IMG/VR virus record: IMGVR_UViG_3300038974_000417
Location: 1-64,000 of that record
DNA: 64,000 nt
Strand: one strand, 5' to 3'
Source: a virus
Lineage: Duplodnaviria; Caudoviricetes
A program made the position numbers and the translations under genes. This document shows, piece after piece, positions 2,606 through 60,042 of this stretch. The stretch's first letter is position 1, and every line of letters begins with the position of its first letter. The notes beneath the pieces were generated by a model. It was not told where the DNA came from and searched no databases. It worked only from the letters and a program-made list of their open reading frames with translations.

Positions 2606-2638
2606 AATATTATTAAAAGTATCATTTATACTTTAATA

Positions 2639-2652
2639 TATAAATATTTATG
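2639..2652. promoter_or_regulatory. overlapping divergent T4-type late promoters
   Basis: TATAAATA on + (2639-2646) and CATAAATA on - (2645-2652) between divergent genes; gp55 is encoded in the window. Confidence 0.55.
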
Positions 2653-2674
2653 TTAATTGATATAAAAACCACAT

Positions 2675-8617: not shown

Positions 8618-10441
8618 ATGTATATGACAAAGCAAGATGTAATTCAATTAAGGTGTGATTATACTAGGCACTATGTGGTAAAGCTTAAAACTCATCACAA
8701 GGGATTATTTAAAGAAATAGAAAAATATAACAATTGTATACAATGTGATTATGAAATGAGTAATAGTCAAAAAGTATATAATTGGTGTTATGATATTAAG
8801 AAGATACCAGCTTGTCCTGTTACTGGTAAACAGTTACAGTTTATTTCAAACAAGTGGGAATATAGAAAGTATGGTAAAAGGGGTGTTTTATCTGTAGAAG
8901 CTAATGATAGACGAGTTAAGACTAGAATAAAGAACGGTTGGGGATCACCTATAAAAACAGATTTTAAGAAATGTACAGCATCCACTCGTACTTTTGAAGA
9001 ATTAAAAGATATATTTACAAAAGAGCTAATTAATAATGCTGGAGCGTACATAATGAAGCTTAAATGTGTATATCCGAAAGAGCTTAAGCAGGTTTGGAGC
9101 ATGTACAATTGCTTTGAACCTGTTGGTGCTTGTGTATATTGCTTGTTGAATGGATGGAAGAGTGTTCCGATTTGTTCGGTTACTGGTAAGCCGAAGAAGT
9201 GGCTCGGCTTTAGAAGAGGATTTGCGGAATATAGTAATGATCAAAAAGTAGTTACTATGTTAAAGAGAAAACAAAGGAAATGGAGATATGAAATAGCAGA
9301 AATATACTCACGAGAAGACACTGTACAAAAATTACAAGAACAATTAAAAAACATTCCAAATAGGCAAAATCTTAAGCATATTTTATTTAAAATCGATCCC
9401 AGCTTAGTTAAGTCTATAGAACACCATACATACGGTGTACAGCTCTCTAGAAATACATTTGCAGAAAAAGCTTTTTATCTTATAAATGGAATGCCTCAGG
9501 ATAATGCTGGAAAAATTAAATATTATTTTGAATCTTTTGATACAGGATACGAGGAACGGTTCAAATATATTAATGAATCTAGGGGTGAGAATGAGGTAAG
9601 AAAATGGTTAAATGGCTTAGGTATTAGGACTGAGAAAAAGAGAATTAATAGATATCTTGAAATTGATATATATATGCCAGATTATAAAATCGGAATAGAA
9701 TATAACGGTGAGTATTATCACTCTAATTTATTTAAATCTCCTAATTTTCATTTAAATAAAACAGAACGATGTAGAGAACATGGTATAGTATTACTTCATA
9801 TATTTGATAGTGAATGGGTACAAAGACAGGAAATAATTAAATCTATTATTTTGTCAAAATTAAATTTAATTAAGAAAAAAATATATGCGAGAGAGTGTAT
9901 CGTACGTAATGTGAGTAGTGCTGAGCGAAAGTTGTTTTTGAATAATAACCATTTACAGGGAAACGACAAGTCATCAATTAGTGTTGGATTATATTATAAT
10001 GATGAATTGGTGTCAATAATGACGTTTGGTAACCGTAAGATAACAGGAAATACTCAATTTGAACTTCAGCGGTTTTGCAGTAAGCTTAATACTATAGTAA
10101 TTGGTGGCGCTTCTAAATTATTTTCATACTTTACAAAGACACATGGCAATATGAAGATTGTCACCTATGCAGATAGGAGACTAAGTACAGGTAATTTATA
10201 TCCAAAACTCGGGTTCACTTTATCTCATTATTCTCCACCTACATATTACTATTTTAAACCTGCTATGGGTGTATATATGAAATTATATCATCGATCCAAT
10301 TTTCAAAAACATATTCTACATAGACGTTTAAGTAGTTTTGACAGTGCCAAGTCGGAAAAGGAGAATATGAGTAATAATGGATATCTTCATGTTTACGATT
10401 GTGGTCATATGGTTTTTAAATATTGTGATTCTGCTCCATAG
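8618..10441 (+). CDS. Hef-like freestanding endonuclease (PD-(D/E)XK/Vsr-like core, C-terminal GNAT-like domain)
   Basis: EIDIYMPDYKIGIEYNGEYYHS; KKIYAREC, FLNNNHLQG, ELQRFC, TYADRR; two N-terminal CPVTGK/CSVTGK repeats. Confidence 0.75.
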   Translation: MYMTKQDVIQLRCDYTRHYVVKLKTHHKGLFKEIEKYNNCIQCDYEMSNSQKVYNWCYDIKKIPACPVTGKQLQFISNKWEYRKYGKRGVLSVEANDRRVKTRIKNGWGSPIKTDFKKCTASTRTFEELKDIFTKELINNAGAYIMKLKCVYPKELKQVWSMYNCFEPVGACVYCLLNGWKSVPICSVTGKPKKWLGFRRGFAEYSNDQKVVTMLKRKQRKWRYEIAEIYSREDTVQKLQEQLKNIPNRQNLKHILFKIDPSLVKSIEHHTYGVQLSRNTFAEKAFYLINGMPQDNAGKIKYYFESFDTGYEERFKYINESRGENEVRKWLNGLGIRTEKKRINRYLEIDIYMPDYKIGIEYNGEYYHSNLFKSPNFHLNKTERCREHGIVLLHIFDSEWVQRQEIIKSIILSKLNLIKKKIYARECIVRNVSSAERKLFLNNNHLQGNDKSSISVGLYYNDELVSIMTFGNRKITGNTQFELQRFCSKLNTIVIGGASKLFSYFTKTHGNMKIVTYADRRLSTGNLYPKLGFTLSHYSPPTYYYFKPAMGVYMKLYHRSNFQKHILHRRLSSFDSAKSEKENMSNNGYLHVYDCGHMVFKYCDSAP

Positions 10442-10448
10442 ATATCGT

Positions 10449-10739
10449 GTGAACAACCAGTGGCTAAAGCGCACTGGCTTCAGTTTAGAGCTTTAAGGCG
10501 CTCAAGGTGGATTCACTGCCACAGATTAACCTCTTCAGGGTACCAAAACGTTTGGTTTTATATCTTCTAGGCTTTCACCTCATCCATATACCGAAAGATA
10601 TATGTTGTTTATACCTATAATTATTTATGCTAACCAGCTAAATTTTCTTGCTTTTTAGCAAATTAATTTAATATAAACAATAAAGCTGGCAAAATTCATC
10701 CATGTGCTGAAGCATCATGGTTTTCTTTTGCAAGAAACA
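10449..10739 (-). mobile_element. non-autonomous IS200/IS605-type element, copy A (291 bp, omegaRNA-like, no tnpA/tnpB)
   Basis: identical to reverse complement of 41923-42213; preceded by TTAT, LE AAAA+bulged hairpin, RE GAAG+bulged hairpin, ends TTCAC, no target duplication. Confidence 0.85.
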
Positions 10740-10751
10740 ATAAATATTGTC

Positions 10752-11021
10752 GTGAATAGCCGTAGACGTAAATTTAAGCCAGGTGATTTGGTACGTATTA
10801 AGAAGTCAATACAGTATATATATCCGAGTGATTACGCTACTGCTATAGGAGTTATAGATGATATAGATGATTCAGATCAACTCAACACCGGTGTACTTAG
10901 TGTGCTATATGATAATGACGATGTTAGTGTTCTTATACCTGCATCCAATTTAGAACATGTCATGCCTGATGTAACCCCTGAGACTGATAAAGCATATAGG
11001 GATATATTTAAAGACCTATAA
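10752..11021 (+). CDS. small SH3/KOW-like beta-barrel hypothetical protein
   Basis: KFKPGDLVRIK motif; the ORF-track extension to 10704 lies mostly in element A, so GTG 10752 after ATAAATA is the likely start. Confidence 0.55.
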   Translation: MNSRRRKFKPGDLVRIKKSIQYIYPSDYATAIGVIDDIDDSDQLNTGVLSVLYDNDDVSVLIPASNLEHVMPDVTPETDKAYRDIFKDL

Positions 11022-11094
11022 CTGCGATGAAATCTTCCTATAATGCATAAATATTCATAGATACACACCATAAATATCTACAGGAGAAACAATT

Positions 11095-11598
11095 ATGTCA
11101 ATACAAGAATTTTATAGTACATCACAACAGAAGGAATTTGCGCGCGATTTTCAATTTCGCGTAGTAACCTTAGGACCATTTGATGCTCAGGACTTATTAT
11201 ACGTACAGACCGCGACGCTTCCCGCTAAGACGGTTCAAAATCAAACCGCATCATTTATGGGGCTAGATTTTAATGTTCCTGGTAGTGTAAAGTATGATGG
11301 TAGTTCCAGCTGGAATATTACATTTTGGTGTGATGAAGGCCTTAACATCCGTAATAAAATGGAAAATTATGTTAAGACTATTTTTGATGATGAAACAAGC
11401 ACTGGTTTATATGGAGTGCCCACTGAAATAGCAACATTAGATTTACTCGGAAAAAATCGTGAAACGCTTCGTAGATATGATTTTTACGGTCTTTATCCGG
11501 TTACTGTAGGAGAGATATCTTATGATATACAGGGTTCGGGTACTATATTAACTGTTCCTTGTACGTTTGCATATCAATTCTGGCGTTTGCGTAAATAG
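11095..11598 (+). CDS. gp19: tail tube protein
   Basis: FARDFQFRV, TATLPAK, WNITFWCDE, CTFAYQFW; two CATAAATA motifs (11046, 11069) and AGGAG upstream. Confidence 0.9.
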   Translation: MSIQEFYSTSQQKEFARDFQFRVVTLGPFDAQDLLYVQTATLPAKTVQNQTASFMGLDFNVPGSVKYDGSSSWNITFWCDEGLNIRNKMENYVKTIFDDETSTGLYGVPTEIATLDLLGKNRETLRRYDFYGLYPVTVGEISYDIQGSGTILTVPCTFAYQFWRLRK

Positions 11599-11659
11599 CA
11601 TCTCAAGTCAATCTGCGTACATTTAAATAGAGCAGCTAGCTGCTTTAGTAAATATTATT

Positions 11660-13210
11660 ATGGCAGATGTCGTTAGAGTTATAACAGCCGGCAATCCCGG
11701 AGATACCCTCACCTCTTCAGTTCGAGGAATAGGTGGGGGTGCATTAGGTGCAGCAGCTGCAATGGCTACTCGAGCTACCTCTAATATACCGGGTGCAAAT
11801 GTTGCAATCGCTGGTCTTCAGAATATAGCCGGTGATTTTCTACAGGGTGATAGAAATGTTACAGGAATTTATAATGGATTTCTTACTCAAATATTACAAG
11901 ATTATACTAGTTCCCCATCTATTATGCCCCTGTGGGTGTGTTATATAGATATAGAAGAAAGAGATAAGATACAATTAGCTGATAAGTTAGATAAAAATAG
12001 TGGAGGTAAACATGTCACCACTAGACAGGGATTGCTGGGATTAAGTAGAGGTCAGCATTCGGCGGGAGATTTGGGTAGAGGTTTGGCTTTAATGTTTTGT
12101 CAGGGTGTACAGGTACCATCTGATTCTATATCTGTTAGACGAGATTCTTATAGTAGCGCAATTGGTGGATATATACCAGGATTAATAGGAGATAATAGAA
12201 GTCTTAGTGAAGTTACTATTTCGTTTCTAGAGAATAACGCAAGCTTTACGGATTTCGTTTTAAGGCCTTGGATGATGTATAATTCATATTATGGTATACC
12301 CAACGGAATTAAATCTAATATAATAATTGAAGAATATGTACGTACGTTACCTGATAAACCGTTGAGGTTAAGAAAGAAAATTACTTTACATAAAGCATTT
12401 CCAACAACTATAGATTCATTAAATTTACGGTATAAAGATACTGCAGATACTAGACAAATTCAGTTTGCATATGAAAGTTATAATATAGAAGAGGGTGGAG
12501 ATTGGGGAATATCTCAGATTAATAAGAATCAATCATTATTGGGTAAATTGGGTGAATTAGCTTTAAATGTAGCAACTGGGCTGGTCAATAAAGAGATTGA
12601 AAAGTTTGAATCTAATTTATTCTCAATTAAGCCTCAATTAGTTAATATAGAACCACCCGCTACACCCCCATCTGAGGTAGCTAAGCAAAGTGTATCGAAC
12701 GTTAGTATTACTAGCTCAGACCATGCTACACAATCGATTAAATCTCAAATAATAAAAAATATTAAAGATGATACACCTACGTTTGAATTGGTTAATAATA
12801 ATACCAAAAAGGTTATTATACCTGCAGAGGATATGATTGATATTACTCAACTGAAAAACATATCTAAGATTGATCAAGTAATTATACCTGAAGCTGATGT
12901 TGTCACTGCATCTGAAGTTCGAACTGATTATGTAGGAGTTTATCCACCTAAGGAAGACACGCCTACTCTAGCACCATTCAGAAGACCGGATCCTGCTACT
13001 ATATTGCCACGTGATGATATGATTTCTAGATCTACTAAAATAGATAAACAATCTGCTATTATTGGTAAAGATGATGAGGCTCTTAAGTCTAGGATAAATG
13101 TACAAAAAATATCAATTAATAGTAATGATTCTCGTAGAGACAAATCATACATACCTGTTCAAATAATATCTATTGGTACTAATGATTCTCGTGAACTACT
13201 AGGTAGCTAA
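11660..13210 (+). CDS. gp54: baseplate-tail tube initiator (gp54-like) with long repetitive C-terminal extension, truncated by element C
   Basis: tube-fold N half (VTISFLEN, WMMY, AFPTTI, FAYE); last residues ELLGS* are read from an inserted element end. Confidence 0.7.
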   Translation: MADVVRVITAGNPGDTLTSSVRGIGGGALGAAAAMATRATSNIPGANVAIAGLQNIAGDFLQGDRNVTGIYNGFLTQILQDYTSSPSIMPLWVCYIDIEERDKIQLADKLDKNSGGKHVTTRQGLLGLSRGQHSAGDLGRGLALMFCQGVQVPSDSISVRRDSYSSAIGGYIPGLIGDNRSLSEVTISFLENNASFTDFVLRPWMMYNSYYGIPNGIKSNIIIEEYVRTLPDKPLRLRKKITLHKAFPTTIDSLNLRYKDTADTRQIQFAYESYNIEEGGDWGISQINKNQSLLGKLGELALNVATGLVNKEIEKFESNLFSIKPQLVNIEPPATPPSEVAKQSVSNVSITSSDHATQSIKSQIIKNIKDDTPTFELVNNNTKKVIIPAEDMIDITQLKNISKIDQVIIPEADVVTASEVRTDYVGVYPPKEDTPTLAPFRRPDPATILPRDDMISRSTKIDKQSAIIGKDDEALKSRINVQKISINSNDSRRDKSYIPVQIISIGTNDSRELLGS

Positions 13211-13260
13211 AGCTACGCTAGCTTCGAGTTTAAAGCTTTTACTCTGGTCTGATTCACATT
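13191..13260 (-). mobile_element. right-end remnant of a related IS200/IS605-type element (C); left boundary approximate
   Basis: minus strand gtgaatc..aaagctttaaactcGAAGctagcgtagctttagctacctagtagttcac aligns with the 3' part of A/B. Confidence 0.75.
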
Positions 13261-13262
13261 GA

Positions 13263-13385
13263 GACCCATTCAACACCGTAAAATATCAAAATATAACAAC
13301 ATCCAAAAATGATTCACAACGACAGGGAGATTCAATTAAAAGTAAGATAATAGAATCTCCAATCACTGATGTAAATAATAGTTGA
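13263..13385 (+). pseudogene. orphaned C-terminal 40 codons of the gp54-like gene
   Basis: frame reads DPFNTVKYQNITTSKNDSQRQGDSIKSKII, continuing the Q-x-I-x4-NDS repeat of the upstream ORF. Confidence 0.6.
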
Positions 13386-13415
13386 ACAACTTTTATATAT
13401 GTATAAGTATATTAT

Positions 13416-14273
13416 ATGAACACTACTAATATTGATATTAAATCCCTTTTAAATACATTAGATACTATTAACACTAAAAACTATGCATTTCATGTATATG
13501 TACCATCTCTACAAAAAGATATACCGTTTCTACAGATAAGTACTAGTCAGCAAAAGTCATTAATTAAATCTGTTATTGATTCACCGGTATATAATACAGA
13601 ATTTATATATACTATACGTAGTATTATAAAAGATAATTGTCTGGATAAAGAGGTTAGCATTGATGAATTAACGCTACTTGATAAATTAGTTATATGTTTA
13701 GCTCTTCGAAGTAAGAGTATTAGTAGTACGTATGAATTTTCATATACTCATGAAGGAGCAGAGTTAAAATATAATATTGAATTGGATTCGTTAATTGAGG
13801 CATCTAAATCTATAGATATTGAATTAGAGAGAGTCATAGAAACTCAAGACTATAAAATAACTACACGAGTTCCTACTATTGGTATTGAATATCAAGTAGA
13901 AAAAGAATTGAGATCAAAAAACCGCCAAAATAATGAAAATATTCAAAACAGTGAACAGCTTCGTGATATAGTAGGAGAAGCGTTTATGACTGAATTAATA
14001 AAATATATTAAATGTGTAGAAATTCCACGAGGGGATACCGAGGTATTTAAGATAGAAATGAGTAATATGTCCCCTAAGGATGGTATTAGTATTTTGGGTA
14101 AATTCCCGATTAAAGTGCTTGAGAGTATATTAGATTTTGTTAATGATTATAGTCGGAGTATTAGTAATATAACTAAGATTAAAGTTCCTGGTGGAGTAAA
14201 TACCGAAACAAATGAAGTTGAATTCATAGAACAGGAGATTCCGATTAACGGGAATTTTTTTATAATTTCTTAA
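13416..14273 (+). CDS. gp26: baseplate hub/tail assembly chaperone (gp26-like)
   Basis: VPSLQKDIPFLQIST, LTLLDKLVICLALRSKSI, ends GNFF; upstream of tape measure. Confidence 0.7.
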   Translation: MNTTNIDIKSLLNTLDTINTKNYAFHVYVPSLQKDIPFLQISTSQQKSLIKSVIDSPVYNTEFIYTIRSIIKDNCLDKEVSIDELTLLDKLVICLALRSKSISSTYEFSYTHEGAELKYNIELDSLIEASKSIDIELERVIETQDYKITTRVPTIGIEYQVEKELRSKNRQNNENIQNSEQLRDIVGEAFMTELIKYIKCVEIPRGDTEVFKIEMSNMSPKDGISILGKFPIKVLESILDFVNDYSRSISNITKIKVPGGVNTETNEVEFIEQEIPINGNFFIIS

Positions 14274-14510: not shown

Positions 14511-17351
14511 ATGTCAACAAATACTGATATAAGTGCTCTAATAGAGCCGCTATTAAAAGATACTAATATTGCTTCCGATTTACAACGGAAAGTTAAGGAT
14601 GTATACTCTACTCTATTAGATAATTTATCCAAATCTGCCAAGGGTATTAAATTTGAGACTGGTACAGTTAATATCAGCTCGATGTTGGGGGTTGATCAAA
14701 AACAATCGTTATATACTTCACATAAGTATCAATCTTTACAGCGAACTATACTGGATAGGGTTCAAAAGTATGTAAGAACCACAGAGAGTAATATAGTATC
14801 GGAAGGTATAAATCTTGGTACTGTATTGGGTACATCTCAAAAAGAATCTTTTTTAACTTCTAGGAAGTTTCAATCCATAAAAAAATCTATTTTAGATAGA
14901 CTGCAAACTGATCTAGGACGCTATAAGGGTAATATAATTGGTAAATCCGGCATTAATTTGGGTGATATATTAGGAGGCGATCAAAAAGAATCTTTTTTAA
15001 CTTCTAGGAAGTTTCAATCCATAAAAAAATCTATTTTAGATAGACTGCAAACTGATCTAGGACGCTATAAGGGTAATATAATTGGTAAATCCGGCATTAA
15101 TTTGGGTGATATATTAGGAGGCGATCAAAAGAATTCTATATTAATCTCCATGAAATTTCAGTCTCTTAAGCGTAAAGTACTTAAGAAATTGGAGACTGAT
15201 TTAACCGATAAAAATTTAAGGTTGTTATCTACTGGCCAATTATCCATTGGTGATATAATGGGTGAGATCCCTGAAATGGGATTGTTTGAGCGTCTTAAGT
15301 TTCGTAAGCTTAGATCTAAAATGATGACTGCAATAGAGAAAAGTGTATTAGGCATTAAGGATGATAAATTAGATAAAAATGGAAACAAAGAGAGTGGTGG
15401 TCTTCGTATATTTGAGGAAGAAGCTACACCAGTTAAGTTGGTATCTATTGATGATGATATATTAAAAAACCTGTCTGGTGTGCTAGGGGCGGGTACTGCT
15501 GTGACAGCTGTTGCGGGTGGAGTTGATGCTAAGCCACCGGCAGGATTAACCAAGTGGATTGCACCGATTATTATGATAATAGCTAGTTTAGGTGCCTTAG
15601 CTACAGGATTAATGAGTACTGGTCCAGCTAAGGGTCTTATGACTATGCTTGGTAAAGTGGGTATAATGGCTAGTCTTAAAATGGTAGCCAAAATGGTGGG
15701 GAAGGTGTTAACCAAAACTCTGAAGTGGATACCACTGGTAGGTACTTTTGTGGATTTAGCGGATGCTTTTATGAGATTTAAGAATAAGGATTGGGCTGGT
15801 GGCTCAATAGCTTTAGTAGGTGGTTTATTGTCTTTGATTAATTTAGCAGCTCCAGGAGTGGGAACTGCGTTGTCTTTGGGGTGTTCGGCCTTAAATGCGT
15901 TTTTGGATTTTAAGGCTGGTGGGTCCAGTGAGGAGGCAAGTGTCAAGAAGATGGATATGATAAAGGACTTCTTACGACCATTTGGTGATGCAATATTACC
16001 TATATTAAAAGCTCTACCTCCTGTAGCATTGGGGATTGGATTATATAAAATAGCTAAGGGTGATGTTAAAGAGGGATTTGAAGCTATGGCAAAGAGTGTG
16101 TCGTGGATTCCGGTTATAGGAGAACCAATGGCTCGAGTAGCTTCATTTTTAGGTGAAAGAGCACAAGAGTGGACGGAGGCTAAATTTGGTACTGAGAGGC
16201 CTTTATGGGAATCTGTAAAAGATTATATTGTAGATAAATTCAAAAACGCTCTCAAGAGAGTTATAGCTATAGGTACTGGAATAAAAGAAATATTTACTGG
16301 GGATGTAGGTAAGGGATTTGGCACTGTTATTAGTGCTGTTTCTGATTTAGATTATATTGGTCCACCACTAGCTAAATTGGGGTCTTTCTTACAACAAAAA
16401 ACCGAGAATTTTAATGCTACTCATGGAGAACCTGGTCAGCCATTGTGGGAGAAAATAAGAGATTATTTGAGAGATAAAATCCAGGCTGCATGGAAGCGTC
16501 TTATAATGTTTGGTACAGGTATGCTTGATGTAGTTAAAGGAGATATACCTAGTGCTTTCGATAAGTTTGCGCAAGCGACTGATGGATTAGGTATAGTAGG
16601 ATCTGTATTTAATACTCTTAGGTGTTGGATGGAGGAGGCAGAGGAAGAGGCACCGACATGTCCGGGGTGTGAAGGAACAATTAATTTCTTTGCAGCGTTA
16701 AAGGATATAATGGTAGAAAAGATGTCTAGTGCTGTACAGAAGCTTCCCAGGATGGTTAGATTTGTATTATCTAAAATTCCAGGTTTTAAGGAATTCGTTG
16801 GTGATGAAAATTTTGATAATATAGGAGATGAGATATCTGATGCAATTGGTGATCTGGGAGCTGGTATTAAAGATGTTGTTGGTAGTAAGATAAAGGCTGG
16901 TAAGGATGCTGTGAGTGAGGGGTGGGGGAAATTAAAGAGTTGGAGGCCGTGGGGAGGAGATGAAGAGCAGGGTAGTCCGATACCTGTTACTGATTTTGCT
17001 GGTGTTATCAAGCCTGGTAATATTGTAGGATCGTTTAGGAATAATCCTATAGTTAATAGTGCCACAGATTATGTAATTGGTGCAAAGAGAGGTGGTCCTA
17101 TAGAGCAGAAGTTGACTGAATTAGTTGAATCTGTTAATAGTAATATGAAGGATTTAGCAATTAAAATATCTGAAAGTATTCAATCTGGTGTAGGAAATAT
17201 ACAACCAGCTTATATACCGATTCCGCCACCCGCAGTTAATATACCACCTCCGGCTCCTGCATCTATTGGATCCAGTAAAGCACCGAGTTATGCTGTGGGT
17301 AGTATATATAATCAACGTGCAAGATTTTATGCTTTATATGGAGATCAATAG
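14511..17351 (+). CDS. tape measure protein
   Basis: 946 aa, helical repeats, Gly/Ala-rich hydrophobic middle; position after chaperones. Confidence 0.8.
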   Translation: MSTNTDISALIEPLLKDTNIASDLQRKVKDVYSTLLDNLSKSAKGIKFETGTVNISSMLGVDQKQSLYTSHKYQSLQRTILDRVQKYVRTTESNIVSEGINLGTVLGTSQKESFLTSRKFQSIKKSILDRLQTDLGRYKGNIIGKSGINLGDILGGDQKESFLTSRKFQSIKKSILDRLQTDLGRYKGNIIGKSGINLGDILGGDQKNSILISMKFQSLKRKVLKKLETDLTDKNLRLLSTGQLSIGDIMGEIPEMGLFERLKFRKLRSKMMTAIEKSVLGIKDDKLDKNGNKESGGLRIFEEEATPVKLVSIDDDILKNLSGVLGAGTAVTAVAGGVDAKPPAGLTKWIAPIIMIIASLGALATGLMSTGPAKGLMTMLGKVGIMASLKMVAKMVGKVLTKTLKWIPLVGTFVDLADAFMRFKNKDWAGGSIALVGGLLSLINLAAPGVGTALSLGCSALNAFLDFKAGGSSEEASVKKMDMIKDFLRPFGDAILPILKALPPVALGIGLYKIAKGDVKEGFEAMAKSVSWIPVIGEPMARVASFLGERAQEWTEAKFGTERPLWESVKDYIVDKFKNALKRVIAIGTGIKEIFTGDVGKGFGTVISAVSDLDYIGPPLAKLGSFLQQKTENFNATHGEPGQPLWEKIRDYLRDKIQAAWKRLIMFGTGMLDVVKGDIPSAFDKFAQATDGLGIVGSVFNTLRCWMEEAEEEAPTCPGCEGTINFFAALKDIMVEKMSSAVQKLPRMVRFVLSKIPGFKEFVGDENFDNIGDEISDAIGDLGAGIKDVVGSKIKAGKDAVSEGWGKLKSWRPWGGDEEQGSPIPVTDFAGVIKPGNIVGSFRNNPIVNSATDYVIGAKRGGPIEQKLTELVESVNSNMKDLAIKISESIQSGVGNIQPAYIPIPPPAVNIPPPAPASIGSSKAPSYAVGSIYNQRARFYALYGDQ
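14837..15130 (+). repeat. exact 144-bp (48-aa) tandem duplication in tape measure
   Basis: 14837-14980 identical to 14981-15124, plus degenerate flanking units. Confidence 0.95.
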
Positions 17352-25978: not shown

Positions 25979-25990
25979 AAGTATATTTAC

Positions 25991-26038
25991 ACTCTTTAGC
26001 TGAGAAAGCTAGGATGGCTTAGCCACCTAGTAGTTCAC
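25991..26038 (+). mobile_element. 48-bp single-hairpin IS200/IS605-type unit (D)
   Basis: TTAC|actctttagctgagAAAG ctagg-a-tggc-tta-gcca-cctag tagttcac. Confidence 0.75.
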
Positions 26039-29266: not shown

Positions 29267-29576
29267 TTTGTTTCCAATATCTAATACTATCTTTAACTGC
29301 TTTACTTTTCGTTAAACTGGGATTATAATCAAAAATTAAACATAACGCAACACTAAAGTTTTCACATGAAAAATATTCACAAAATTCCTGTTGTATTATT
29401 GGATCCTTTATTATTTCCACAGCAAGAGCAACTTGATTAAGTTGTTTATTCTTTAAAATGGATATATAACTCCCGAATTTTAGCATGCATATATCCAGCT
29501 CCTTAGCTAACATGTCTGTGCGGGGATTGTGATCTAAGTGTTCTATTAAAGTTAGTACATTACTTTTATTGGACAT
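29232..29576 (-). CDS. hypothetical protein at the T4 gp33 position
   Basis: 114 aa; TATAAATA at 29582-29589 on minus strand. Confidence 0.5.
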   Translation of the reverse strand: MSNKSNVLTLIEHLDHNPRTDMLAKELDICMLKFGSYISILKNKQLNQVALAVEIIKDPIIQQEFCEYFSCENFSVALCLIFDYNPSLTKSKAVKDSIRYWKQNVHNKKTRIHI

Positions 29577-29612
29577 GCAATTATTTATAATAATTTATAA
29601 TAATCCAACTAG

Positions 29613-39941: not shown

Positions 39942-41738
39942 ATGAAGAAGATAATTTTTAAGAACATAAGAGTGTGTAATTTTTTATCTATTGGATCTAG
40001 AGAGATTAAATTAGATTTTACTCCTGGTATAAATTTAATAACTGGTATAAATTTAGATAAAGAAGATACTGGAAACGGGAGTGGTAAATCAAGCTTAGTC
40101 AATTCTATATATTTTGCTTTATATGGCAGAACTTTGAAGGATTTAAAGGTAGATAAAATTCCTAATAGTTTTACTAGAGGACCATGTCGGGTGACTCTGG
40201 ATTTTGATGTATGTCATAATAATAATTTTACTTCTTATTCGGTTATTAGATCTCTCCGCCCTACTAAATTAAAAATATTAAGGGATGGGGAGGATATTAC
40301 TAAGAGTACTATTATTCAGACTACCGAGTTATTGCAGGATATTATTAGTTGCTCTAGTACGGTTTTTGAAAATAGTATAGTAATGGATGCTAATAGTGCT
40401 ACCAATTTTATGTCCCAGAAGAAGGTAGAAAAGCGTAAATTCTTAGAGGGTATTTTAAATCTTACAATATTTGGTGAGATGTTGAGTATTGCTCGAGCTG
40501 ATTATAATGATGCACGATATCAGTTTGATATAGAAAACGCAAAGCTTCAGTCTGAGGTTTCAGCTCTTGATAATTATAGGAAACAATTAGACAGACAGAA
40601 GAGCGTAAGGGACGAGAGACGTGAGGAATTACAGGGTAGAATTAATGAGATATCTAAGGAGATGGAGTCTTTAAGTAGTAACATTAAAAGCATTCCATCT
40701 GATGAAGAGTTGGGGGTTATAAAATCTAAATGTAGTAAATTGGATGATGCTCTGTCTACCAATCGATTAAATTATAAGAAGTTAATCAAGTTGGAGGCTG
40801 AGGTGAATCAGTCCAAGAAGCATTTGATGGAGAGGCTTGATAAGTTAATTAATTTACCTAATGAGTGTGTGGAGTGTGGTCGTTCATTTTCTGACGAGGA
40901 TCGAAGGGTGGTGGGGGATGAGTGCGCGAAGATGAGGGTTGATATATCGGATATCACTAATAAAATTTCGGACGTTAGGAATCAAATTGGTGTAATTGAG
41001 GATCAATATAAAAAAATAGAACAGGGTAAGTTGTTATTATCTCAAAAGCAGAATAATATTAAGGCCTCTGAGAAGCATAATGAAACCGTTAATTGGCGAA
41101 TTATGCAATTATCTAAAACTCTTGATACTTTGCATAAGGATTTGATTGCAGTTGATAGGGACGATTCTGGGTTGACGGATACTATATCTAGTATATCTAA
41201 AAAGGTAGATGGTATACGGGAGACGGTCAACCGGTTGAATGTTAAGATGGATATATTAAAATCTTCTAAATTTATTTTATCAGAAGAGGGTATTCGTAGC
41301 TTTATAGTTAAGAGAATTTTACGAATACTTAATAGTAAGTTGAATATGTATTTAGCCAAGTTAGATGCTAATACTAGATGTGAATTTAATGAATACTTTG
41401 AGGAGTCTCTTTGGGATATATCTGGTAATGAGAGAAGTTATTATAATTTTAGCAATGGGGAACAGCGCCGAATAGACTTGGCTATTCTTTTTGCATTTCA
41501 AGATATTCGTCGTTTACAGGCTGATGTGGATATGAATATTAGTATATATGACGAACTGTTGGATAGTAGTTTGGATAGGAGGGGGTCAGAGCTGGTGATT
41601 GCTTTGTTAAAAGAGCGGGCTGATAAAAATAAGGAGTGTGTATATATAGTTAGTCATCGTAAGGAAGCTCAATCTAGTTATACTAATAAAGTTGTTACGT
41701 TACAGAAGAAGAATGGTATAACTACTCTGGTAGACTAG
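39942..41738 (+). CDS. gp46: Rad50/SbcC-like recombination ATPase
   Basis: GNGSGKS, coiled coils with CVEC hook, FSNGE signature, IYDELLDSSLD, SH. Confidence 0.95.
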   Translation: MKKIIFKNIRVCNFLSIGSREIKLDFTPGINLITGINLDKEDTGNGSGKSSLVNSIYFALYGRTLKDLKVDKIPNSFTRGPCRVTLDFDVCHNNNFTSYSVIRSLRPTKLKILRDGEDITKSTIIQTTELLQDIISCSSTVFENSIVMDANSATNFMSQKKVEKRKFLEGILNLTIFGEMLSIARADYNDARYQFDIENAKLQSEVSALDNYRKQLDRQKSVRDERREELQGRINEISKEMESLSSNIKSIPSDEELGVIKSKCSKLDDALSTNRLNYKKLIKLEAEVNQSKKHLMERLDKLINLPNECVECGRSFSDEDRRVVGDECAKMRVDISDITNKISDVRNQIGVIEDQYKKIEQGKLLLSQKQNNIKASEKHNETVNWRIMQLSKTLDTLHKDLIAVDRDDSGLTDTISSISKKVDGIRETVNRLNVKMDILKSSKFILSEEGIRSFIVKRILRILNSKLNMYLAKLDANTRCEFNEYFEESLWDISGNERSYYNFSNGEQRRIDLAILFAFQDIRRLQADVDMNISIYDELLDSSLDRRGSELVIALLKERADKNKECVYIVSHRKEAQSSYTNKVVTLQKKNGITTLVD

Positions 41739-42217
41739 AGATTGCCCAAAAAATCTTTAAAGCTGTCGAATGTTTTAGATGAAGTATTTTTAATAGCTTC
41801 ATATTCATTTGACTTTTTAATAAATGCACTATTTGCTTCATGTTCACCCATTTTTTTACCTATTTGAGTGGGTAACCATTCATTCAATCTATGTTGTAGT
41901 TCTTCTAATATAACCGACTTATTGTTTCTTGCAAAAGAAAACCATGATGCTTCAGCACATGGATGAATTTTGCCAGCTTTATTGTTTATATTAAATTAAT
42001 TTGCTAAAAAGCAAGAAAATTTAGCTGGTTAGCATAAATAATTATAGGTATAAACAACATATATCTTTCGGTATATGGATGAGGTGAAAGCCTAGAAGAT
42101 ATAAAACCAAACGTTTTGGTACCCTGAAGAGGTTAATCTGTGGCAGTGAATCCACCTTGAGCGCCTTAAAGCTCTAAACTGAAGCCAGTGCGCTTTAGCC
42201 ACTGGTTGTTCACTCAT
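41735..42217 (-). pseudogene. 63-aa gene interrupted after its 4th base by element B
   Basis: removing 41923-42213 gives AAGGAG-N10-ATG AAT AAG TCG GTT..., MNKSVILEELQHRLNEWL...DFLGNL*. Confidence 0.75.
41923..42213 (+). mobile_element. non-autonomous IS200/IS605-type element, copy B (291 bp)
   Basis: TTAT 41919-22; AAAA 41938-41; hairpin 41942-62; GAAG 42181-84; hairpin 42185-205; ends TTCAC; identical to copy A. Confidence 0.85.
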
Positions 42218-42273: not shown

Positions 42274-42561
42274 ATGAAGAGGAAGTATAGGAGATTGCTT
42301 AATCGATCTGGATTAGAGAAATGTGAGATATGTGGTAGAGAGGGAATTTTAGTACAGCATCATATCCGTGGTAGGAATATCCCTAATGCCAATCATCCGA
42401 GCAATTTAGCTAACATATGTCCCAACTGTCATGCTGATATACATAATGGTATTATTATATTAGAAGACTGGGTGATGACCACCGGTGGATATGAATTATT
42501 ATATCATCATTACAAAGAACCTAGTTTAACTGGTAATGATGCTAAGCCTTGGTTAATTTAA
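42274..42561 (+). CDS. small HNH endonuclease
   Basis: CEIC..HHI..N...CPNCHADIH. Confidence 0.85.
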   Translation: MKRKYRRLLNRSGLEKCEICGREGILVQHHIRGRNIPNANHPSNLANICPNCHADIHNGIIILEDWVMTTGGYELLYHHYKEPSLTGNDAKPWLI

Positions 42562-51354: not shown

Positions 51355-51362
51355 TATAAATA
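51355..51362 (+). promoter_or_regulatory. late promoter with near-leaderless start
   Basis: TATAAATA 5 nt before ATG 51368. Confidence 0.6.
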
Positions 51363-51367
51363 TTATT

Positions 51368-51616
51368 ATGAATTTCAGGGACATGTTTAATTTAATTATA
51401 GGTGAGGATAATACAGCCGGGGGTGGGGACGTATTTGGTCCTGGTTCTGTTAATACTGGACAATCGATGCAGGGAGATAATATATATAATCCGGGAGATT
51501 ACCGGTTGGCGACTGGGCGCGGCGTTGTGTCGAGGCGAGGGGCTGTTGGAGGTAGGAGGAAGCGTCGTGGTGATCGTGGGCGGAGGAGATCGAAGAATCG
51601 AAGGAGAGTTAAGTGA
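51368..51616 (+). CDS. small Arg-rich protein with head-protein leader
   Basis: FRDMFNLIIGE leader; RRKRRGDRGRRRSKNRRRVK tail. Confidence 0.6.
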   Translation: MNFRDMFNLIIGEDNTAGGGDVFGPGSVNTGQSMQGDNIYNPGDYRLATGRGVVSRRGAVGGRRKRRGDRGRRRSKNRRRVK

Positions 51617-53117: not shown

Positions 53118-53133
53118 TTATATCAACTTAGAC

Positions 53134-53162
53134 AGATCAATCGGTTTTCCCAGCTGATGAAT
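53134..53162 (-). mobile_element. degenerate single-hairpin unit (F)
   Basis: TTAT|attcatcagctgggAAAAccgattgatct, 25/29 identical to unit E; 3' end decayed. Confidence 0.65.
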
Positions 53163-53174
53163 ATAAATAATTAC

Positions 53175-53489
53175 ATGAATAAATTTAATACACTTTTTAA
53201 TCGCATTTTATCAGAAGCCGGACTAGCTGCAGGTGGTGATCCCGGTGCTACTATTGGTAAAGGATTTACTGAACTAACACAAGGAATACAAAATACAGCC
53301 CAAGCTCAGATTGAGGTACTAACAAAGCAGAGTGATCAGCTTAAAAAGCAGCTGGAGGCTATACTAGCGCAAATTGCACAGTTGCAGAAGGCCGCCACTA
53401 CTCAACCCACTACTAATACTCAATCCACTACAACTCCCACATCTACACCCACTTCTGTCACCACTGGAGTTACACCAGCTATACAATAA
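53175..53489 (+). CDS. hypothetical internal head-type protein
   Basis: TATAAATA 53162-69; leader KFNTLFNRILSE; coiled coil and Thr-rich tail. Confidence 0.6.
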   Translation: MNKFNTLFNRILSEAGLAAGGDPGATIGKGFTELTQGIQNTAQAQIEVLTKQSDQLKKQLEAILAQIAQLQKAATTQPTTNTQSTTTPTSTPTSVTTGVTPAIQ

Positions 53490-59962: not shown

Positions 59963-60011
59963 GTGAACTACTGTTTGACTAAAGATCAATCGGTTTTCTC
60001 AGTCGAAGAAT
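59963..60011 (-). mobile_element. 49-bp single-hairpin IS200/IS605-type unit (E)
   Basis: TTAT|attcttcgactgagAAAA ccgattgatctttagtcaaacag tagttcac. Confidence 0.75.
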
Positions 60012-60042
60012 ATAAATATTCTCGGAGACTATAACCCGAGGA
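60011..60042 (+). promoter_or_regulatory. late promoter plus SD-sequestering hairpin
   Basis: TATAAATA 60011-18; ttctcgg 60019-25 pairs with ccgagga 60036-42, which contains GAGGA. Confidence 0.5.

Follow-up and report, generated by a model that had tools for sequence, protein, structure and literature searches.

Palindrome-associated transposable elements (PATEs) are gene-less derivatives of IS200/IS605 insertion sequences that are made of both ends, and gene-less IS200/IS605 derivatives are known in cellular genomes. T4-type phages carry early promoter stem-loop cassettes, in which a hairpin is followed by a promoter and the unit is repeated in intergenic gaps. IS608 pairs its cleavage site TTAC with the guide AAAG and TCAA with GAAT (PMC5934647). 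IS200/IS605 elements have also been described in phages: the T4-like Campylobacter phages CP220 and CPt10 harbor ISCaje1-4, most of which carry tnpB only and one of which has tnpA (PMC2853527). Here we describe six copies of a hairpin-bearing element family (A to F) in a T4-like, lytic, uncultivated phage. They lie in the window, that is, the whole stretch of DNA analyzed, which covers the first 64 kb of the 73,311-nt viral contig IMGVR_UViG_3300038974_000417 (GC 33.7%, estimated ~35% complete). The elements are of the IS200/IS605 type, and A is a non-autonomous IS605-type derivative consisting of a left end and a right end.

The interval 10449-10743 (295 nt) is 100% identical to 41919-42213 on the opposite strand, and these two stretches hold elements A and B. 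Since the final 4 nt of the former, ATAA, are the complement of TTAT and belong to the target, the body of A measures 291 nt (10449-10739). The interval opens with GTGAACAAC followed by a hairpin and closes with AACAATAA. Read in transposon orientation (minus strand), A begins with TTAT, a 15-nt leader, the guide AAAA, the left-end hairpin and the body, after which come GAAG, the right-end hairpin and the last TTGTTCAC. Hairpins are thus subterminal at both ends and terminal inverted repeats are absent. TTAT directly before the left end is common to A, B and a copy in L091 (L-numbers denote contigs used for comparison). In a TnpB guide-RNA (omega RNA) cassette, the right end would encode a structured RNA that overlaps the 3' end of tnpB and is bound by TnpB; A keeps about 145 nt of this end, which fold well (z = -3.4 to -3.7), and only the last 43-45 nt align to the right ends of L004 and L028. 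Five heads GTGAACWAC are present, those of A, B, C, D and E, against 0.59 expected, and a scan of the contig found no family copies beyond the six.

Gene-bearing relatives identify the parent type. In L004, A-like head and tail sequences ~1.7 kb apart enclose genes for a 138-aa Y1 transposase and a 372-aa TnpB. The region L004:2856-3272, between ends homologous to A, matches Pfam Y1_Tnp (E = 1.3e-39), and the TnpB matches Cas12f1-like_TNB (E = 1e-20) and OrfB_IS605. Compared with this full tnpA+tnpB element, A is ~75% identical in its left-end half and ~93% identical in its right-end tip. Versions with tnpB only are found in L042 and L028. The site ..taataaTTAC, 13-16 nt ahead of a ATGAGTGA.. 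start, holds the full element in L004 (L004:1726-3439) but an ends-only copy of 292 nt in L046 and L030, which is consistent with internal deletion in place. A degenerate pattern built from the head, the hairpin loop and GCTTC matches more than 115 viral contigs, and the right-end hairpin stem shows compensatory changes, with covariation across at least 89 unique viral-contig sites. Searches against isolated phages returned zero blastn matches for element A and an identity of ≤27% at best for the family TnpB; in Rfam, neither the element nor the L004 and L042 right ends matched a family under gathering and E-value thresholds. Left-end-like hairpins with the loop CTTTAG or CTTCAG and an adjacent TTAT also occur in Woesearchaeota genome bins (L259, L262, L275, L276 and L278), and the family or its hosts may extend well beyond these phages. 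In L186, an A-type copy lies directly beside the 3' end of an apparent tRNA gene (..TGGTGGACCGAACGAGAATCGAACTCG, opposite strand).

The guide is formed by the four bases immediately 5' of the left-end hairpin. Left-end hairpin scans of viral, metagenome and genome contigs gave 34 independent sites, at which elements with AAAG are found at TTAC (20/20) and elements with AAAA at TTAT (14/14). This guide-target covariation (34/34), which was not fitted to any alignment, means that the element specifies four target bases. At the right end, GAAG goes with the cleavage site TCAC in the same pattern as the GAAT/TCAA pair of IS608. As the empty alleles of A-D described below reveal, occupied and empty sites differ by exactly the element body, which follows TTAT or TTAC, and the target is not duplicated; where a promoter is present, the tetramer is on its opposite strand. 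The guide-target rule is that of IS608 from Helicobacter pylori, and the likeness extends to the subterminal imperfect hairpins without inverted terminal repeats, the insertion 3' of a tetranucleotide without duplication, the position of the four-base guide 5' of the left-end hairpin (TTAC/AAAG being identical), the ~19 nt from the cut to the hairpin foot, the right-end guide/cleavage pattern and the presence of Y1 TnpA and TnpB in the full-length relative. In contrast to IS608, the window copies are gene-less, D and E use a single hairpin for both ends, the right-end cleavage site is TCAC instead of TCAA, a natural guide switch to AAAA/TTAT occurs within one close family, and the host replicon is a lytic T4-like phage.

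Presence/absence polymorphism is seen among genomes that are 97-100% identical. Element A is missing from L141 (JGI 3300010350), a contig 97.6% identical to the window over 10740-13195 and 13278-13494, where the sequence reads gaatt-TATAAATA-ttgtc-GTG (site ttTATAAATAttgtcGTG) and the insertion point falls exactly between T and ATAAATA. In silico excision of A yields cgTATAAATAttgtcGTG. An initial reading of the window from its letters alone (hereafter the sequence-only reading) had proposed that removing A rebuilds a late promoter, and the L141 allele TATAAATA-ttgtc-GTG is what it predicted. It had likewise deduced that without D the upstream protein would end in K-I-E-stop overlapping the promoter. 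Such an allele exists in L143, where the flanking genes are 8 nt apart (gaATAAATAtacttATG) and aaa ata gaa taa (K-I-E-stop) overlaps ATAAATA-tactt-ATG; L142 carries D. When D is present, translation of this protein stops at the TGA within GTGAAC, again as deduced. In place of C, L141 contains 126 nt of tail-gene coding sequence with the original target ggTTTTAC, and its tail gene encodes 589 aa compared with 516 aa here (window 11660-13390). The tail gene was shortened by the insertion of C followed by an internal deletion with its junction at a GTAAAATAT microhomology. Downstream, the coding sequence of the missing C-terminus persists untranslated. For B, the empty allele in L152 (..aaggag..ATGAATAAGTCGGTT.., site ..aaggagtattaatacaATGAATAAGTCGGTT..) is an uninterrupted open reading frame (ORF) of at least 122 aa. 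Conversely, a divergent intergenic region that lacks an element here (window 2606-2674) contains a 232-nt family member in L067. F is identical in four other contigs, and an empty allele was found neither for F nor for E: L148 and L149, which include the gene before E, break off within the element, and an exact look-up of the gene after E gave nothing. The empty alleles show that A-D are mobile insertions, not fixed parts of promoters, and that their inferred boundaries are correct. Relatives that present A and D as fixed promoter-upstream sequences, an outcome the sequence-only reading had named as fatal to it, are thus not what the comparison returned.

These alleles also set the locus apart from the other known systems. 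The elements resemble PATEs in being short, non-coding and hairpin-bearing, in keeping the parent ends and in presumably being moved in trans by TnpA; they differ in the phage setting, in the parent found at the same site in a related phage (L004 versus L046 and L030) and in polymorphism between genomes 97-100% identical. With the early promoter stem-loop cassettes they share the order of hairpin and promoter and the repetition in intergenic gaps, but here the promoter lies outside the repeat, and what is repeated is a transposon, for which empty alleles exist and which obeys a TnpA-type target rule. ISCaje1-4 likewise live in T4-like phages and occupy differing sites in closely related phages, whereas they are full-length with genes, use the target ATTTT and have no late-promoter link described (PMC2853527). 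New here are ends-only and single-hairpin derivatives in a phage together with matching empty alleles, the natural guide switch, and the overlap of the target with a late-promoter core. Within a natural population of this uncultivated T4-like phage, gene-less IS200/IS605 derivatives are present in some genomes and absent from others, and the guide-and-target reprogramming (AAAA/TTAT versus AAAG/TTAC) earlier shown by engineering in IS608 occurs naturally.

The sequence-only reading had further noted that four of the six copies (A, D, E and F) abut the late promoter read backwards, and these positions hold (A adjoins ATAAATA at 10740-10746); B and C lie within genes. TAAATA occurs ≤45 nt upstream of starts in 25 of 82 cases in sense and in 7 in antisense, with ~5% expected by density. 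TAAATA-N4-7-start is present at 12 genes, mostly as N5-ATG (51355-51370, 53162-53177, 29576-29589, 11646-11662, 25979-25990 and others), and the motif precedes the tail sheath and tail tube genes too. Judged from this placement, RTAAATA is a real gene-upstream motif in this phage and resembles the T4-type late promoter. A T4 late promoter is recognized by a gp55-type sigma factor, has its transcript start 6 nt downstream and needs nothing further upstream than its octamer. This short octamer lies at -13 to -6 in T4-type phages, and conservation of the T at -13 is poor among T4-like phages (PMC1524935). If T4 spacing applied to TAAATA-N5-ATG, transcripts would start at the A of ATG and the 12 genes would yield leaderless late mRNAs, which would be unusual for a T4-like phage.

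Both TTAT and TTAC are contained in the reverse complement of the core RTAAATA, as the sequence-only reading had recognized, and the insertion cut falls between octamer positions 1 and 2. E and F themselves supply the first T and so keep TATAAATA (60011-60018 and 53162-53169), again in agreement with that reading. Unoccupied promoters differ from one another in the first two octamer bases (TA, CA, AA, AG and TG), and AATAAATA, CATAAATA, AGTAAATA and TGTAAATA are all found among them, AATAAATA before five unoccupied genes. Because position 1 is variable and every post-insertion octamer is also seen at unoccupied promoters, it is plausible that promoter function is retained and that the occupied promoters survive.

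How over-represented promoters are among the insertion sites depends on the sites used for comparison. The contig contains 2603 TTAY sites on both strands, of which 83 (3.2%) read TATTTAY, and only ~2.7 kb of the genome is non-coding. Intergenic TTAY sites number 131/2603, and 20 of them (15%) read TATTTAY, as do 45% of the 44 intergenic TTTAY sites. Left-end targets in the contig are TATTTAY in 4/5 cases, a clear excess over all TTAY sites (P = 5e-6) and a modest one over intergenic TTAY sites (P = 0.0024). When intergenic TTTAY targets are compared with their own background, the excess is gone (6/9 versus 45%, P = 0.17). The wider sample gives 7/34 against 3.7% (P = 2e-4), and with D, E, F and the L089 copy added, 11/38 against 3.7% of TTAY in the same loci (P = 9e-8); over all TTAY sites, enrichment is 6-8-fold. 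Enrichment, which the sequence-only reading had proposed to count genome-wide, is strong against all TTAY, modest against intergenic TTAY and absent against intergenic TTTAY.

We propose that A entered by single-strand 'peel and paste' as in the IS608 model, with a Y1 (HUH) TnpA that would act in trans, and that it joined the bottom strand on the 3' side of TTAT without duplicating its target. Mobilization by TnpA, which would pass through a single-stranded circle, is inferred from the presence/absence polymorphism and the identical copies. The tetramer is read by the four-base guide, AAAA specifying TTAT and AAAG specifying TTAC, and every RTAAATA promoter offers a target because its complement is TATTTAY. 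An insertion there would alter at most one base of the motif, and E-type elements would supply the T. Most other TTAY sites lie in genes of a packed genome, where insertions would mostly be lost, and promoter copies would accumulate. We infer that the over-representation of promoters is survivorship on top of the four-base target rule and not promoter recognition. Of the polymorphic copies, A and D are at promoters while B and C damage genes; F, without an empty allele in four other contigs, is at a promoter and was counted for selection. The whole account, that is, gene-less IS605 derivatives, a four-base rule, purifying selection and harmless promoter insertions, is in our judgment probably correct. 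It would explain why elements of this kind are retained in dense phage genomes, since a short-octamer promoter contains the complement of the target and insertion there would cost little. It also carries a caution, as selection alone can produce apparent site preference in surviving copies. The sequence-only reading had seen a built-in safe harbour in the gap between a stop codon and the next late promoter. Its overlap and position stand, but targeting of the promoter itself is not supported, as the guide reads four bases only and B and C are in genes; its reservation that selection without targeting could give the same pattern has proved the better-supported half.

Several observations weigh against this account, and all but the missing transposase genes also form the case for true promoter targeting, in which integration would be mechanistically biased to the late promoter in a family adapted to T4-type promoters. 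All four intergenic copies in the contig are at RTAAATA, above the 15% null, and by hand count ~11/20 are when relatives are included. T is enriched at -5 (20/34 versus 37%, P = 0.007), so some intrinsic flank preference is possible. Elements are antisense to the downstream gene in 11/11 judgeable cases (null 61%, P = 0.004), and such uniform orientation is not an obvious prediction of simple survivorship. Furthermore, no tnpA or tnpB was found in the 73-kb contig, so a transposase source is lacking there. The 11/38 left-end targets at TATTTAY point the same way, and engineered IS608 can use extended left-end/target pairing (PMC5934647). Targeting could operate through extra pairing of the left end with bases upstream of TTAY, or through promoters kept single-stranded in open complexes or clamp-loading sites. 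We nevertheless consider it unlikely. The guide covaries with the fourth target base only; 27 of the 34 wider-sample sites are not TATTTAY, many of them in coding sequence; the polymorphic copies B and C are inside genes; E-type copies in L004 and L135 are at ATAAAAG with no promoter; and the excess disappears under the intergenic TTTAY null. In addition, the target would lie on the template strand, not on the free strand of the transcription bubble. An orientation rule valid throughout the right-end family was considered and rejected, as the broad set leans the other way at the right-end flank (34 versus 7), which places the antisense bias in this subfamily or in left-end contexts.

In its strongest form, the idea of adaptation to T4-type phages would have the guide tuned to the invariant complement of the late promoter, dozens of late promoters serving as neutral landing pads, the terminal base restoring -13, integration perhaps favored at the unwound promoter, and antisense orientation as the signature. 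We regard this as improbable; if true, a viral promoter would serve a transposon as its built-in safe harbour.

Coincidence of composition is a still weaker alternative. TTAT and TATTTAT are common in an AT-rich genome (GC 33.7%), and the octamer TATAAATA is not over-represented in the window (17 found versus 24 expected), so adjacency to promoters might be meaningless. This is very unlikely given that TATTTAY makes up only 3.2% of TTAY and yet takes 4/5 copies, and given the P values of 2e-4 to 9e-8 in the wider sample. That hairpin and promoter form a fixed regulatory cassette, a conserved intergenic module with the hairpin as terminator or stabilizer, much like the early promoter stem-loop cassettes, might be suggested by the 36 nt including TATAAATA shared by E and F, by the invariance of F in four other contigs and by hairpins close behind stop codons, but it has next to no chance of being right, being already contradicted by the empty A and D alleles in near-identical genomes, by the same elements at non-promoter sites (B, C and the E-type copies in L004 and L135), by inter-copy similarity that ends at the target tetramer and by full-length relatives encoding TnpA and TnpB.

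Table 1. Positions of the six elements, the functional parts of element A and the promoter octamers next to the insertions (window coordinates).
Feature	Position	Strand	Description
Element A body, 291 nt	10449..10739	- (left end to right end)	Non-autonomous IS200/IS605 derivative; no ORF of its own
Right-end cleavage site TCAC	10449-10452		
Right-end hairpin CCAGTG..CACTGG + CTTC	10458..10482 (hairpin 10458-10478)	-	CTTC on the + strand is the complement of the GAAG guide
Left-end hairpin CCATG..CATGG + TTTT	10700..10724 (hairpin 10700-10720)	-	TTTT on the + strand is the complement of the AAAA guide
Occupied promoter AATAAATA-ttgtc-GTG	10739..10754	+	Putative; ahead of the 89-aa gene 10752-11021; first base element-derived
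Target tetramer TTAT (ATAA on +)	10740..10743	-	Left flank of A; equals positions 2-5 of the putative late-promoter octamer
Element B, identical copy of A	41923..42213	+	Target TTAT 41919-41922; after ATGA, second codon of a - strand gene
Element C, 87-nt right-end fragment, left end absent	13191..13277	-	Within the 3' part of the tail gene
Element D, 48 nt, one hairpin	25991..26038	+	Target TTAC 25987-25990; promoter complement TATTTAC 25984-25990
Element E, 49 nt, one hairpin	59963..60011	-	Terminal T opens TATAAATA (60011-60018)
Element F, decayed E-type left-end fragment	~53118..53162	-	Terminal T is the first base of TATAAATA 53162-53169, then attac-ATG
Octamer after insertion of A			AATAAATA; first base now A, 7/8 bases unchanged
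Octamer after insertion of D	25983-25990		TGTAAATA
Octamer after insertion of E and F			TATAAATA

The shorter copies are related to different members of the family. C matches the right end of the L042 element, a tnpB-only form, at 96% identity, and D joins the leader and hairpin of an L042-type left end to a right-end tail. An E-type copy with 91% identity is present at another site in L004. F matches E over 32-36 nt at 88-89% identity and has lost the head. Matches to a 16-base E-type pattern were mostly due to chance, the real ones being in L004 and L135 only. The right-end tip GTGAAC gives the upstream gene its TGA not only at D (window 26035-26038) but also in L012 (2457-2460) and L091.

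A and B form inverted copies of 295 nt each, 31 kb apart, and recombination between them would invert the whole intervening segment; assemblies from other samples (L148-L151) break at these repeats (10449-10743 / 41919-42213). The gene split by B (window 41735-42217, minus strand) encodes at least 122 aa in L152, whereas here it would have only 63 codons if B were removed; the two sequences diverge after ..LPTQI. The adjacent SbcC-like gene (39942-41738) is oriented opposite to its neighbors, unlike in the relative L003. Together, the divergence from L152 and this orientation suggest a further rearrangement beside B, and a 95-aa HNH gene (42274-42561) adjoins the element.

Close relatives, sought via the tail-tube protein, were not found in viral or metagenome contigs, and homologues of the small proteins flanking the elements were absent from the fetched loci. 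A 607-aa homing-endonuclease-like gene (8618-10441; phrog_3339, E = 8e-101) separates the tail sheath gene from the tail tube gene. That A travels together with this gene was considered and rejected, as L141 has the 3' end of the gene but no A. Further downstream, the 946-aa gene 14511-17351 contains a 144-nt tandem duplication (14805-15092) whose copies are 90% identical.

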